Source of the DNA: a virus
Taxonomy: Duplodnaviria > Heunggongvirae > Uroviricota > Caudoviricetes
IMG/VR virus record: IMGVR_UViG_2526164693_000014
Reading direction: 5' to 3' (one strand)
DNA: 5,573 nucleotides
Below, in pieces: positions 1,425 through 4,870 of this stretch. The translations under genes and the position numbers were made by a program. Under the pieces are notes generated by a model that saw nothing but the letters and a program-made list of their open reading frames with translations, did not search any database and had not been told where the DNA came from. Within the stretch, counting starts at the first letter, position 1. Each line of letters opens with the position of its first letter.

Positions 1425-2123
1425 TTACCCGTTATCTCCTGTCGTTATTTTCTGTATGACATCACGATGCTTATTAATTTCCCGCAGCGCGGCGCATAAG
1501 CGCTCCCACTTCTGAACCTGACCTTTTGCCCGGCGCAGCTCGCGGTTAGCCACATGCAGCGATGGTAAAATCAGACCATCCGGATGCTTTCTGATGAACG
1601 ACGACTGTGACTGCACTGTGACCGCCACACTTTCAGTTTTAATTTCTTCCTGTGTTTCCGCTTCCCGGACTGGTAACGCAACACCTGCCGGCTGAGGAAA
1701 GGCTTTACCATCGGTTTCCGTTACCGATGCAGCTTTCGGCTCTGCCGGTAAATTATCGCCCGGTATGCAGTAACGATATTTACCGTCCTGATTTACGCGA
1801 ATCAGACGACCTTTGCTGACAGCCATCGCCAGTGATGAATTCGCCCGGCGGGAGGTAATCCCGAACATTAACGCCAGTTCGTCAGCCGACTGAGGACCAT
1901 GCTGTTCAATCGCGTTAATCAGCATCTCTGCAGTGGTTTTTGGGGCCGCTTCAGTTGCCTCACTCGTCAGCCACCACATCGACCCCTTGTTATCAGCTTC
2001 GCCACGACGCTTCAGCTTCCAGAGTTCGGTAACAGCATCGTCACGGCTGATTTCAAGACGGGCTGCAATCTCGTGCGACGAGGCTTTTTTCAGTGCTTTC
2101 AGTGCGTCAAAAACGGTTTCCAT
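1425..2123 (-). CDS. Hypothetical prophage protein (232 aa) with two winged-helix-like segments
   Basis: Track ORF is 1425..2189, but the ATG at 2123 has a GGAGG RBS about 6 nt upstream (ccgggaggaaaatttaATG) and avoids overlap with the P-like gene. Two segments resemble each other and wHTH folds (inference). Confidence 0.6.
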
Positions 2124-2157
2124 TAAATTTTCCTCCCGGTAAAAATTACTTCTCAAC

Positions 2158-2823
2158 TCAGACAAAACCGGCCGCCTTCCGGCGCTCATATTCCTGTTTC
2201 AGCAATTCAATTGGCGTTGGCCCTGGCGGGCGTTTGGGTGCTGCCAGTTGTCGCCGGACTGGCGGAACACTGAGGCCATTACCAACATGCTTTGCCCATT
2301 TCGTCAGTTGCCGTTCTGCAAGCCGTTTTAATTCCCCTTCGGTCATCTGGCGCTCAATCCCCTTTGAACGCATCTCGAGGCAAATGTGATACAGCACAGG
2401 CTGAGACCACGGGTACTTATCACTTCCGTCGTATCGCCAGGACTCATTGCGCCAGCGGCGGTACTCCTCCATCACAGCATCCACCGTCAGACCGAATGGA
2501 TTGGCTCCGCTTTTCGAAATCAGTGCCACAAACTCAGCCAGGTCCGGAGGCCATGTTTCACCCGCCCGGCAGCGGTCCATGCACTGGCGGCAGACCTGCC
2601 GGATTTGCTGCTCAGTCATCGCGCCAATCTGTGCAATCCAGAGCTTCGAAGGTGCGGCCCCGTTCTTCTGGATCCAGCGGTTCGAATAAACCACCCCCAT
2701 GAGTTCCCACAGCTTCCAGGCCGTTTCCGTCGCTGATAAATCCGTTTTCACGTTCCCACTGCTCACGTGCTGCCCGAATTTCCTGAACTGCCCGTGATGC
2801 GGTGCCACCTGGTGCTGCTGCAT
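2158..2823 (-). CDS. Phage replication protein P-like (lambda P family, DnaB helicase loader)
   Basis: Recalled similarity to lambda P: [18 protein letters not shown]...[13 protein letters not shown] here versus lambda ESYPWKSNAHYWLVTNLYQNMR...TDAELRRKAADEL, plus an upstream MTEQQ segment. The ATG at 2823 has an AAGGGG RBS with 6-nt spacer but overlaps the O-like gene by 212 bp out of frame; in-frame ATGs at 2700 and 2619 are alternative starts. Confidence 0.75.
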
Positions 2824-3652
2824 GGTTTACCCCTTTGCTGACTGGTTTAACCTGCGCCCTGACGTGATTTACGTGACGGGCGAATTTCTGCTCCCACTGA
2901 ATCTGCGTAAACACTTTCCCCTCCGCTGCCCAGTAGTCCCGGAAGGCGGCAAGTTCAGCAGGTGTAAATTCTGTCTCCGGCAAAGCCATCCCCCACAACG
3001 CAGCCCGTCGTCGAAAATCCCGTGACGGATACCAGCTATCGCTCATCGGGAATTTTCCGATGGGTTCGCTCAGGCCATACAGGAATACAGGGGGGGCTGC
3101 CTGTAACGACAAAACTTCCTGCTCACTGGTCGGAGCACTCTCGCGTGCGTTATGTGTGGGGTTTAGATCTTTGGGTTCCTTTGGGTTCCGTGATCCGTTT
3201 TTGGGTGTCTTTGATGGAAAATTTGGGTGTCTTTGGTTATTTTCCATGCAGCTAAGAGTTCTGTTTTTGGGTCTGTTTTGTGCTGAAACATAACCATTTT
3301 CGGTACTGTTTTTATTAACAGCACCAATTTTACCCACCTTTAAAGACTCCCGTTTTTGGGTGTATTCAGGCTCGGCAACACTTTCTTCTACACCGATAAG
3401 TCGGTACACCACAATTTGCTTTGTTCTGCCTTTTCTCTCACCGGTATCAACAATTAACCCAATCTCCATCAGGTGTCGTAAGCTGTCCTGCACAGTCTTT
3501 TTGTTCAGTTCCGTTACTTCTGCCAGTGCAGATACAGACGGGTATGCACACAAATCGGCACCGCACATATCAGCAAGCCAGGTCAATACTGACTTACTGG
3601 ATGAACTGCCGGTTTTCACCTTTTTAGCCCATCGTAGTGCATCGATACTCAT
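2612..3652 (-). CDS. Replication initiator, lambda O-like: N-terminal HTH DNA-binding domain, low-complexity linker, C-terminal DnaT-like domain
   Basis: C-terminal region GKFPMSDSWYPSRDFRRRAALWGMALPETEFTPAELAAFRDYWAAEGKVFTQIQWEQKFARHV closely matches the E. coli DnaT C-terminal region as I recall it. Start set at ATG 3652 (MSIDALRWAKK..., G-rich RBS); the track's 3727 start would overlap the upstream gene further. Confidence 0.8.
   Translation of the reverse strand: MSIDALRWAKKVKTGSSSSKSVLTWLADMCGADLCAYPSVSALAEVTELNKKTVQDSLRHLMEIGLIVDTGERKGRTKQIVVYRLIGVEESVAEPEYTQKRESLKVGKIGAVNKNSTENGYVSAQNRPKNRTLSCMENNQRHPNFPSKTPKNGSRNPKEPKDLNPTHNARESAPTSEQEVLSLQAAPPVFLYGLSEPIGKFPMSDSWYPSRDFRRRAALWGMALPETEFTPAELAAFRDYWAAEGKVFTQIQWEQKFARHVNHVRAQVKPVSKGVNHAAAPGGTASRAVQEIRAAREQWERENGFISDGNGLEAVGTHGGGLFEPLDPEERGRTFEALDCTDWRDD
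3170..3365. repeat. Candidate origin of replication: iteron-like direct repeats (core TTTGGGT) with an adjacent AT-rich tract, inside the O-like linker
   Basis: Seen directly: tandem TTTGGGTTCC at 3170..3189; TTTGGGTGTCTTTG at 3200..3213 and again at 3222..3235 (22-bp register); TTTGGGTCTGTTTTG at 3266..3280; TTTGGGTGT at 3355..3363; AT-rich stretch about 3285..3340. Lambda ori is likewise iterons plus an AT-rich region inside O. Confidence 0.6.
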
Positions 3653-4175
3653 ACGCCCCCCTGGCAGACATTTGTTTATCTGCAAAGTAATATTGGTATT
3701 GCTGACGATACGCGTGCTTGAAAGCAATAGCTTTTTCTATAAGCTCGTCAGTCTCACGTTCCACAACAACTGGATCCGCAAAAAGCAGCCCGGACTCCAC
3801 CACATCGCCATATTCTTTGTTTAACCCGGCGATCATGTACGTAATGCTTTTTCCGTCAGTAATTTCACAATACAATCTGAAATCGCTGATCCGGATAGCC
3901 TCCATAATTGCCGGAATCAGCGCCGTGAATTTGTCACGCTTATCTCTGGTGTCGATAGCTTTCCAGCGTTCGAATATCTTCACCCGGTTAACGCCCAGCG
4001 CCCGTTGATCAACCTCGCCATCATTAAACGTGACGCGTTGAACATCGATGTTCGGGCGTTCTTTCAGAGCCCAGAATGCTTCCGTGATTAATATCGTCGC
4101 CTGCTCCTGTGTCATTCCTGGTCGGCATACCCAGGTATCCAGAGCCTCACAAACCTGTTCAGTGGTGATTTTCAT
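3624..4175 (-). CDS. YdaT-like protein in the cII position (183 aa)
   Basis: Sits between the Cro-like and O-like genes. The segment FTALIPAIMEAIRISDFRLYCEI resembles the Rac-prophage YdaT segment as I recall it; this is from memory and unverified. Overlaps the Cro-like gene by 17 bp and the O-like gene by 29 bp. Confidence 0.65.
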   Translation of the reverse strand: MKITTEQVCEALDTWVCRPGMTQEQATILITEAFWALKERPNIDVQRVTFNDGEVDQRALGVNRVKIFERWKAIDTRDKRDKFTALIPAIMEAIRISDFRLYCEITDGKSITYMIAGLNKEYGDVVESGLLFADPVVVERETDELIEKAIAFKHAYRQQYQYYFADKQMSARGAYEYRCTTMG

Positions 4176-4386
4176 TGTTCAACCGCCCCGCCCGCTTTGC
4201 CTTACGATATTCGTCATAAACTTTGGGGTCGTACTGAAGTTCCCCGCCGGATGCCTCTTGCAGGCGCATCGCGCGACCTTCAGGAACCAGTTCCCCCCAT
4301 GCAGCAACGCTTGCCAGCCTAACTCCTGCGACATTGGCAAGCTTTGTTTTGCTGCCAAAAAACGCTATAGCATCAATTTTCAACAT
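4159..4386 (-). CDS. Cro-like small DNA-binding regulator (YdaS/DicC-like, 75 aa)
   Basis: Divergent from the repressor gene across a 76-bp operator region; the pattern AGVRLASVAAWGELVPEGRAMRLQEASGGELQYDP fits the Cro/YdaS-type fold family; first gene of the leftward operon. Confidence 0.75.
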   Translation of the reverse strand: MLKIDAIAFFGSKTKLANVAGVRLASVAAWGELVPEGRAMRLQEASGGELQYDPKVYDEYRKAKRAGRLNNENHH

Positions 4387-4462
4387 ATCGAAACCCTTAG
4401 ATTTTCCTAAGGAAACTAGATCGTAGAGAAACCTAAGTCAAGAAAAATTAGAATTACCTAAT
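4387..4462. promoter_or_regulatory. Divergent operator/promoter region (OR-like) between the Cro-like and repressor genes
   Basis: Perfect inverted repeat CCTTAG-N6-CTAAGG at 4395..4412 and a third half-site CCTAAG at 4432..4437. Plus strand: -10-like TAGAAT at 4449..4454 only 8 nt before the repressor ATG, with no SD. Minus strand: TTGACT (-35) at 4441..4436 with a weak -10. Confidence 0.6.
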
Positions 4463-4870
4463 ATGAAAAACGAAACCTTCGGTGCTCGCCTCTTATACAG
4501 GCGAAAAAAATTAAAACTGTCTCAGGCCGCATTAGGTAAGCTGGTCAAAGTCGCTCACGTAACAATTTCTCAATGGGAAAGAGATGAAACACAGCCAGCG
4601 GGGAAGAGATTATTCGCACTGAGCCAGGCGCTTCAGTGCTCGCCGACTTGGCTTCTTTTTGGAGATGAAGATAAGCAACCAGGCGAACCGATCCCAGATA
4701 ATCAGCCAGTCAATCTGACAGAAGATCAAAAAGAGTTGCTTCAACTGTTCGACGCACTGCCTGAGTCAGAGCAAAAGGCTCTGTTGTCAGAGATGCGTGC
4801 TCGAGTTGAGAATTTCAACAAACTTTTTGAAGAACTACTCAAAGCTCGCAAAAGAAGCGCAAATAAATAA
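4463..4870 (+). CDS. dicA: Prophage immunity repressor, DicA-type HTH_XRE regulator (135 aa, cI functional analogue, no S24 peptidase domain)
   Basis: N-terminal HTH (LSQAALGKLVKVAHVTISQWERDETQP); CSPTWLLFGDEDKQP and the C-terminal NFNKLFEELLKAR tail match my recollection of E. coli Qin DicA; same length; divergent from a Cro-like gene. The symbol means DicA-family homologue, not necessarily the K-12 locus. Confidence 0.85.
   Translation: MKNETFGARLLYRRKKLKLSQAALGKLVKVAHVTISQWERDETQPAGKRLFALSQALQCSPTWLLFGDEDKQPGEPIPDNQPVNLTEDQKELLQLFDALPESEQKALLSEMRARVENFNKLFEELLKARKRSANK

Follow-up and report, generated by a model that had tools for sequence, protein, structure and literature searches.

In phage lambda, the origin of replication (ori-lambda) lies in the middle of the initiator gene and comprises four iterons of 18 – 19 bp bound by O dimers and an AT-rich region, with P-mediated loading of DnaB. 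Both lambda O and P22 gene 18 carry a mapped or annotated origin at the same relative position, and gene 18 of phage L contains six TGTCCAACGGA repeats that are considered a putative origin (PMC8022706). In P22 and phage L, the intragenic array is followed by short tandem or AT-rich repeats, and its rep_origin annotation rests on the analogy to lambda; phage L offers a precedent for deducing an origin from repeats in the case of an initiator outside the lambda O family. Outside phages, iteron plasmids and oriC contain an initiator-binding array that is flanked on one side by two to three tandem repeats of 11 – 13 bp. In RK2 oriV and oriC, initiator sites adjoin repeated 13-mers in the unwinding element (PMC4081077). 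The closest architecture to the one described here is that of the phiV10/epsilon15-type initiators (PHROG 1032), consisting of an HTH_36-type (helix-turn-helix) domain and a DnaT domain followed by a P-like gene, the phiV10 record being without an annotated origin. The DNA under study is a stretch of 5,573 nt (IMG/VR record IMGVR_UViG_2526164693_000014; further referred to as the window), recognizable as the early-right region of a lambdoid Escherichia coli prophage of the O157:H7 type. A cluster of direct repeats (3367 – 3160), embedded in the linker-coding part of an O-like initiator gene, is very probably the replication origin of this prophage. Most likely, it is an intragenic origin of the lambda type in function and plan, situated within an initiator family other than that of lambda O, which would be the arrangement to expect.

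The heptamer TTTGGGT occurs seven times in the window, with 0.81 copies expected and none of 200 shuffled sequences reaching seven. Six copies, all on the plus strand, start at positions 3170, 3180, 3200, 3222, 3266, and 3355 (within 3170 – 3361, 192 bp), in agreement with a first-pass annotation of the window that had counted at least six direct copies; in the sense of the initiator gene, the motif reads ACCCAAA. A tandem pair of 10-mers (TTTGGGTTCC twice, 3170 – 3189) and two identical 14-mers (TTTGGGTGTCTTTG at 3200 and 3222, 22 bp apart) were found exactly as claimed. The six copies are not equivalent: four are iterons (I1, I4, I5, and I6), whereas the tandem 10-mers align to a separate element characterized by GAAYC units. 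A weight matrix trained on 37 iterons from eight relatives, with the window left out, gave four matches in the window, all in the sense of the gene and within 3367 – 3192, compared with 0.48 in shuffled sequences. Five credible iterons, whose core starts follow one another at distances of 56, 33, 44, and 22 bp (each close to a multiple of 11 bp), and one relic are located at 3367 – 3195 (aa 96 – 153):

3350..3367, minus strand: iteron I1, GAATACACCCAAAAACGG(GAG), matrix score 27.3, read as YTQKR
3324..3341, minus strand: degenerate relic I2', AAAGGTGGGTAAAATTGG, no matrix match
3294..3311, minus strand: iteron I3', AAACAGTACCGAAAATGG, matrix score 17.7, family D2 in the repeat search
3261..3278, minus strand: iteron I4, AAACAGACCCAAAAACAG, matrix score 23.0, read as RPKN
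3217..3234, minus strand: iteron I5, AAAGACACCCAAATTTTC, an AATT-type variant, read in a different frame as RHPNF
3195..3212, minus strand: iteron I6, AAAGACACCCAAAAACGG, matrix score 27.0, read as TPKNG

The copies differ in their state of preservation. I1 is conserved in nine Enterobacterales relatives, and the core of I6 is invariant across all nine relatives aligned. I5, the 14-mer partner of I6, is the positional homologue of CCCAATTTTGG in relatives. The relic I2' aligns to perfect CCCAAAAACGG iterons in phage EPP-1, Edwardsiella, and Serratia, and I3', which the first-pass annotation had overlooked, aligns to ACCGAAAACGG copies. I4 contains an A at gene nt 391 (window position 3262; T on the plus strand), where most E. 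coli relatives, and most often the 80 near-identical loci from IMG/VR, have a G; a G at this position would give the canonical CGG (CCCAAAAACGG) and change the peptide from RPKNR to RPKNG.

Relatives of the locus were gathered from phage records and from one genome per species (64 loci, 50 after dereplication), the latter scan being performed with a four-sequence alignment of close N-terminal domains (N-domains). In IMG/VR, the N-domain alignment retrieved near-identical loci of E. coli only, which were used for population variants. The 50 loci span Enterobacterales, Acinetobacter, Vibrio, Pseudoalteromonas, Marinomonas, Burkholderia, Desulfovibrionaceae, Sphingobium, and Zoogloeaceae. Three to seven direct repeats (median 5) were called de novo at about nt 270 – 480 of the gene in essentially all of these loci, typically spaced 17, 17, 22, and 22 bp or 18, 24, and 24 bp apart. 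The repeats, whose absence or lack of conservation in homologues had been named as evidence against an origin, are thus kept at the same place.

Repeats in such a linker might be a mere by-product of a low-complexity, PKNG-like peptide that arose by duplication or slippage, without any function of the DNA. Indeed, the linker is predicted to be disordered and is rich in P, K, N, and G, and the copies lie in a single frame in 11 of the 50 loci; in phiV10, the spacings are 45, 18, 18, 24, and 24 bp and all copies encode PKNG. However, the window motif is read in all three frames, giving the unrelated peptides YTQKR, RPKN, RHPNF, TPKNG, NPKE, and EPKD. Across the family, 39 of the 50 loci have copies in at least two frames and 22 have them in all three; of the repeat spacings, 51% are not multiples of three. 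In addition, pairwise identity among nine Enterobacterales relatives is 46% at the third codon positions of the N-domain but 72% and 82% for the two iteron cores that were measured, far above synonymous sites. The mixed frames and a core identity exceeding that of third codon positions indicate that the conserved object is the DNA. An origin of the repeats at the peptide level is thus largely refuted by the frame evidence, leaves the co-varying dyad arms described below without meaning, and is hardly credible.

The iterons of the family are symmetrical as well. A consensus iteron with a dyad (at least five of six arm positions complementary) was present in 36 of the 50 loci, compared with 12.7% of shuffled consensuses, its usual form being GTNCCA-N4-TGGNAC; the iterons of an Acinetobacter member read GTACCAACAATGGAAC. 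Between clades, the arms change together, namely as GTCCCA/TGGGAC, GTACCA/TGGTAC, GTGCCA/TGGCAC, GTCGGA/TCCGAC, and ATCCCA/TGGGAT. Co-variation of this kind, as read from the consensuses, is what a dimeric DNA-binding protein imposes and, since the family iterons are dyadic, they are probably bound by dimers. The iterons of lambda (tCCCTCAAAACGAGGGa and CCCTCAAATTGGGGGA) are designed in the same way. In the window, short imperfect inverted repeats are found inside the region.

The protein that presumably reads these iterons is encoded by the same gene, which was subdivided as follows:

2612..3652, minus strand: O-like initiator gene, 346 aa, with an ATG at 3652 and the stop codon at 2614 – 2612
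3392..3652, minus strand: N-terminal winged-helix (HTH_36-type) domain, aa 1 – 87, the presumed iteron reader
3068..3391, minus strand: linker, aa 88 – 195, predicted to be disordered (predicted local distance difference test (pLDDT) below 50)
2852..3052, minus strand: DnaT-like domain binding single-stranded DNA (ssDNA), aa 201 – 267 (PF17948)

The initiator matches phrog_1032 ('replication initiation protein') over aa 1 – 298 (E 8.8e-91), as does its N-domain alone (E 2.2e-38), and its RefSeq name is 'DnaT-like ssDNA-binding domain-containing protein'. The N-domain alignment displays the invariant motif DTGE(R/K)xGxT, and PF13730 (HTH_36) is matched by all seven aligned members (best E 5e-14), with close and distant homologues passing. 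According to these profile matches, the initiator belongs to the HTH_36-type phage replication initiators (PF13730; PHROG 1032). An AlphaFold2 model, built from 20 homologues and weak overall (mean pLDDT 51.8), contains helices and a two-strand wing at aa 10 – 87, whereas pLDDT is below 50 for aa 88 – 195 and secondary structure is absent from aa 107 onwards; the low pLDDT and the absent secondary structure identify aa 88 – 195 as a linker. The TTTGGGT copies cover aa 96 – 163, so that their position in the linker between the N-terminal HTH and the DnaT-like domain, as originally annotated, is borne out by the model and the domain coordinates. The DnaT-like domain is matched by PF17948 (61 bits, E 9e-17) and is modelled at aa 200 – 268 with a pLDDT of 73 – 85; DnaT chains are its relatives in the PDB (6aep, 4ou6, and 9zbt; E 1e-18 to 1e-19). 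A PDB relative of the N-domain was not found (best E 0.019), solved relatives being retrieved for the DnaT domain only.

Two other assignments of the initiator were ruled out. It is not a DnaT orthologue, as NF002770 gave 93.4 bits versus a cut-off of 201 and only the C-terminal domain matches. Neither is it a member of the lambda O family, given the score of 14.6 bits (E 0.049) with PF04492 (Phage_rep_O), compared with a cut-off of 28.7 bits and with 123 – 130 bits for lambda O and P22 gp18. BLASTP of the N-terminal half versus lambda O gave nothing beyond short peptides translated from the repeats.

The repeats and the N-domain travel together. By blastn, window 3170 – 3651 is 67% identical to Edwardsiella phage EPP-1, and window 2011 – 3172 is 90.6% identical to Rac-SA53. 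EPP-1 has an N-domain that is 58% identical to that of the window, a different C-domain (Phg_2220_C), and six AAAGACACCCAAAAACGG copies at the same place. Conversely, YdaU of Rac-SA53 shares the DnaT-like C-terminal half, possesses a DUF1376 N-domain, and lacks such repeats. Both homology blocks end at the downstream edge of the repeats, and divergence points among E. coli loci begin at gene nt 470 – 600:

3170..3172: module junction; to the right, the N-domain and repeats in common with EPP-1; to the left, the DnaT-like C-terminal half and the P-like gene in common with Rac-SA53

As judged from these block boundaries, the N-domain and the iterons constitute one exchangeable specificity module, and the C-domain and the loader another, which is the classical lambdoid rule. 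The earlier proposal that the initiator gene carries its own putative binding sites, i.e. an iteron origin in the O-like linker, is consequently supported by comparative evidence of three kinds, namely the reading frames, the co-occurrence with the N-domain, and the co-varying dyads.

Other cases of exchange were encountered. Phage GF-2 combines an HTH_36 N-domain with iterons and GAAYC units; about 60 nt past these units comes GAGAATTCTGACGAATCCTCAGAC, which is nearly the same as GAGAATTCTGGCGAATCCTCTGAC to the right of ori-lambda (lambda stretch 1165 – 1200). This match makes GF-2 look like a natural hybrid of an HTH_36 N-module and a lambda-O-type C-module. Furthermore, a C5/G5 palindrome right after the origin repeats is common to EPP-1, Edwardsiella prophages, and P22 (TACCCCCCTAGCCCCCAAGGGGGAG versus TACCCCCTTACCCCCTAAAGGGGGAT; gene nt 485 – 515, approximately, in EPP-1 and 962 – 990 in P22), and may mark the start of another exchangeable C-module.

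A second element follows the iteron array. The tandem 10-mers of the window align to GGAATCTACCAA GGAACCATAAA GATCTAAACCCC in relatives, not to iterons:

3160..3189, minus strand: post-iteron tandem units GGAACCCAAA GGAACCCAAA GATCTAAACC, a candidate unwinding or loading element

In a search space of 115 nt around the end of the array, GAAYC-N5-10-GAAYC was present in 39 of the 50 loci, with 0.0022 expected from the rest of the loci. Two to three units occur in the family, the usual form being three GAAYCTAYCA units spaced 12 and 13 bp apart, in many cases with an A-rich run behind them. Depending on the frame, a unit encodes either NL or ES/EP, and the combination differs by locus, the frame patterns being (2,2,0) in 17 loci, (2,0,0) in seven, (0,0,0) in five, and (0,0,2) in two. 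These differing frames indicate that this is a DNA element too. Its variation between clades is far smaller than that of the iterons; it is nearly the same from Desulfovibrionaceae to E. coli and is kept while iterons, C-domains, loaders, and the G+C content of the host change. Moreover, the 20-nt bin starting 20 nt past the last copy has a mean AT content 11% over the gene mean (48 loci), and the AT-rich repeats of lambda and P22 occupy the same post-iteron position. The GAAYC element is a candidate unwinding or helicase-loading element, the analogy being to the 13-mers found in oriC and in iteron plasmids.

A wider reading is put forward tentatively, as one that is possible though not the favoured outcome. 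HTH_36 initiators across the Proteobacteria would possess a two-part origin, made up of clade-specific dyad iterons and a near-invariant GAAYC triplet, the latter being a sequence-specific opening or helicase-loading element read by the N-domain or by a universal host factor. The triplet would then be comparable to Rep-13-mer or DnaA-trio interactions, and the tandem 10-mers of the window would be a shortened form of it. A description of such a two-part origin of HTH_36 initiators was not found in the searchable literature.

The first-pass annotation had placed the AT-rich region elsewhere, namely between the outer copies:

3278..3346, no strand: AT-rich tract, 66.7% AT, an alternative unwinding candidate

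This tract is present and moderately AT-rich, with 68% AT at 3286 – 3345 (about 64 – 68% between the outer copies) versus 49.7% for the whole gene, and represents the least stable 60 bp of the initiator gene, yet only the seventh in the window. Its interpretation as a lambda-like spacer did not stand, as it holds I3' and the relic I2', which both align to good iterons of relatives, whereas the AT-rich region of lambda follows the last iteron. A tract containing one decayed and one weak copy is not a spacer of the lambda kind. In the window, the post-iteron units are shortened and have an AT content of 50 – 54%, which leaves two candidate opening sites in this copy.

Compared with ori-lambda, the locus displays the same plan. 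All repeats are direct and lie mid-gene, past the DNA-binding N-domain and before the domain that partners with the loader; a P-like loader gene comes next; and N-domain plus iterons and C-domain plus P exchange separately. The lambda-type architecture that had been claimed is therefore upheld as to the intragenic direct repeats, but not as to the position of the AT-rich tract. The motif differs from that of lambda in sequence, as had been stated, but not in design: in both, an A-tract separates a C-rich from a G-rich arm, and AAAAC and AATT variants occur (tCCCTCAAAACGAGGGa and CCCTCAAATTGGGGGA in lambda, ACACCCAAAAACGGGAG and ACACCCAAATTTTCC in the window). The differences are that the stretch from CCC to GGG measures 6 bp in the window (AAAAAC) and 9 bp in lambda (TCAAAACGA), that the window N-domain is of the HTH_36 type instead of Phage_rep_O and the C-domain is DnaT-like, that the HTH_36 family has two to three tandem GAAYCTAYCA units in place of the plain AT-rich stretch of lambda, and that the window lacks a strongly AT-rich tract past the last iteron. 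P22 and phage L differ from the window in their motifs and in having a DnaB-type helicase gene instead of a P-like loader; P22 gp18 belongs to Phage_rep_O, and gp18 of phage L matches neither family. As the latter has no HTH_36 match, the putative origin of phage L was rejected as a member of the same family. In phiV10, six copies of CCCAAAAACGGG occur at the same place, followed by three copies of AACCAGTCATAT, whereas amino acid identity is about 39% and all copies are in one frame. Iteron plasmids and oriC have no sequence or protein homology to the window system.

Several observations weigh against the reading as an origin. Physical linkage alone would cause repeats and N-domain to be inherited together without any interaction. 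The HTH_36 score of the window initiator, 20.9 bits over its whole length and 23.5 bits when the N-domain is taken by itself, is just below the cut-off of 25. The dyad score is 5/6 for I1, the sole window copy with clear dyad symmetry, and 3/6 to 4/6 for the other copies. The GAAYC units of the window are 10 bp apart, compared with 12 – 13 bp in the family, and the region after the last iteron (3150 – 3195) is only 54% AT. Finally, the most AT-rich and least stable stretches of the window are 269 – 328 (80% AT) and 4412 – 4471 (72% AT), both intergenic.

The latter points favour a different role of the repeats, which would bind the initiator mainly for control, i.e. autoregulation, titration, handcuffing, or incompatibility, with opening and loading taking place elsewhere, for instance in an AT-rich intergenic region. 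Iterons of plasmids serve control besides initiation, and no strongly AT-rich tract adjoins the last iteron of the window. Nevertheless, the homologous position in lambda and P22 is the origin itself, and the AT excess past the last copy and the conserved tandem element found there are what an unwinding region would be expected to show. In this gene order, the AT-rich regions between genes are promoter or operator regions, 4412 – 4471 being the divergent cro/cI-like promoter-operator region. A role restricted mainly to control is hence improbable.

Decay of the window copy is another possibility. The dyads lost in four of the five iterons, the departure of I4 from what most E. coli relatives have, the degenerate copy, and the shortened units suggest that this copy may be weakened, and the cluster could be an origin by descent that no longer fires, left over in a defective element. 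In addition, IS1203 interrupts the same initiator gene in the O157:H7 strain PV15-279. In that strain (NZ_AP018488.1, 4539 – 5751), the element, of the IS3 family of insertion sequences (IS), is inserted in the part encoding the initiator C-terminus (around window 2893 – 2895) and the gene is annotated as a pseudogene, indicating that the replication module is knocked out in some strains. Against decay in the window prophage, the initiator and P-like open reading frames (ORFs) are intact, I1 and I6 score as high as the iterons of relatives, and 908 of 5,426 complete E. coli genomes contain a 561-nt stretch around the repeats with an identity of 95% or more, which reaches 100% in many O157:H7 chromosomes. 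Moreover, the same allele set is found in a circular plasmid record. This 8,461-bp E. coli record (NZ_CP148379.1, strain Z1323HEC0067) carries cI, cro, the YdaT-like gene, the initiator gene, P, and five further genes (encoding DUF5677, an ATP-binding protein, an HNH endonuclease, hokD, and rem); it is 96.5% identical over window 2082 – 4300, keeps all six copies, and contains no other annotated replication gene. It could be a natural mini-replicon of the lambda-dv kind or, which would count against the origin, an assembly artefact, and its support is circumstantial. A non-firing relic is accordingly a minor possibility. The replication module also occurs in a 15.6-kb E. coli record and in a linear 8.6-kb Klebsiella record.

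With the cluster read as an origin, the following course of events can be proposed. After derepression, early transcription of the rightward type (minus strand) would pass through the cro, YdaT-like, O-like, and P-like genes, resulting in synthesis of the initiator. Its N-terminal winged-helix domain (aa 1 – 87) would bind the iterons of about 18 bp (AAAGACACCCAAAAACGG; five credible copies), probably as dimers. The nucleoprotein complex would then destabilize adjacent DNA, either the GAAYC-type units (3189 – 3160) or the 67% AT stretch (3278 – 3346), and the DnaT-like C-domain and the P-like loader would deliver host DnaB to the separated strands. The analysis itself establishes the anatomy, the conservation of the DNA, the dyads with their co-varying arms, the linkage of repeats and N-domain, and the protein domains; that the initiator binds, opens the DNA, and loads the helicase, and that the window copy is active, is inferred.

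The genes surrounding the initiator are consistent with its location in the early-right region:

4463..4870, plus strand: cI-like repressor gene
4159..4386, minus strand: cro
3624..4175, minus strand: YdaT-like gene in the cII position (PF06254, E 3e-5)
2158..2619, minus strand: P-like helicase-loader gene, 153 aa
After the P-like loader gene, in the minus-strand operon: DUF1627 gene

The order cI, cro, cII-position gene, initiator, and P-like loader matches that of lambda, and the 'PPompW' prophages of enterohaemorrhagic E. coli (EHEC) are 99.5% identical to the 561-nt stretch around the repeats. The 3' end of the YdaT-like gene overlaps the initiator start by 29 nt (3624 – 3652), and the order YdaS/Cro-YdaT-initiator was seen again in Rac and in the Klebsiella record; a toxin, a cII analogue, and a replication accessory protein are the roles to consider for the YdaT-like protein. 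The loader is identified by PF06992 (E 2e-16), by phrog_109 ('P-like helicase loader', E 2.6e-54), and by its RefSeq name 'replication protein P', and its ATG overlaps the initiator stop codon (ATGACTGA). It covers positions 74 – 235 of the 236-position phrog_109 profile, indicating that it is without the N-terminal third of lambda P. A longer overlapping ORF from 2823 is probably unused. The loader moves together with the DnaT-like C-domain, with an identity of 90.6% to Rac-SA53 over both. No promoter-like or terminator-like sites were found in 2900 – 3700, no Rfam families and no consensus site for integration host factor (IHF) anywhere in the window, and no DnaA box in the repeat region, the sole match in the window with at most one mismatch (at 1546) being at chance level.

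Units of this composition have been described in another context. In phages encoding Shiga toxin (Stx), the 'Eru8' and 'Eru11' units consist of a YdaT-like gene and an HTH_36 gene next to cI and are listed as 'non-lambdoid' replication regions of unknown mechanism, iterons being unmentioned (PMC8951638). The gene order and domains of the window agree with this published description, the comparison being one by description only. A description of an origin or of iterons for HTH_36 or DnaT-like phage initiators was not found in a search that did not extend to subscription journals, so that an older description is possible, and string searches of the literature for the motifs returned unrelated primers only. 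A phage origin inside the initiator gene is of a known kind; the cluster is a probable new case of it, in a widespread initiator family for which no origin description was found. Of all the parts, only the GAAYC triplet may be new in itself, and it suggests a specific way in which a winged-helix initiator could open DNA. The module is carried by the 908 complete E. coli genomes mentioned above, which include many O157:H7 and other EHEC strains. If the cluster is indeed the origin, units combining YdaT with an HTH_36 initiator would follow the lambda plan, mutagenesis and footprinting would have specific target sites, the extent of a minimal replicon would be defined, and the origin would be predictable from the sequence alone for the whole initiator family.

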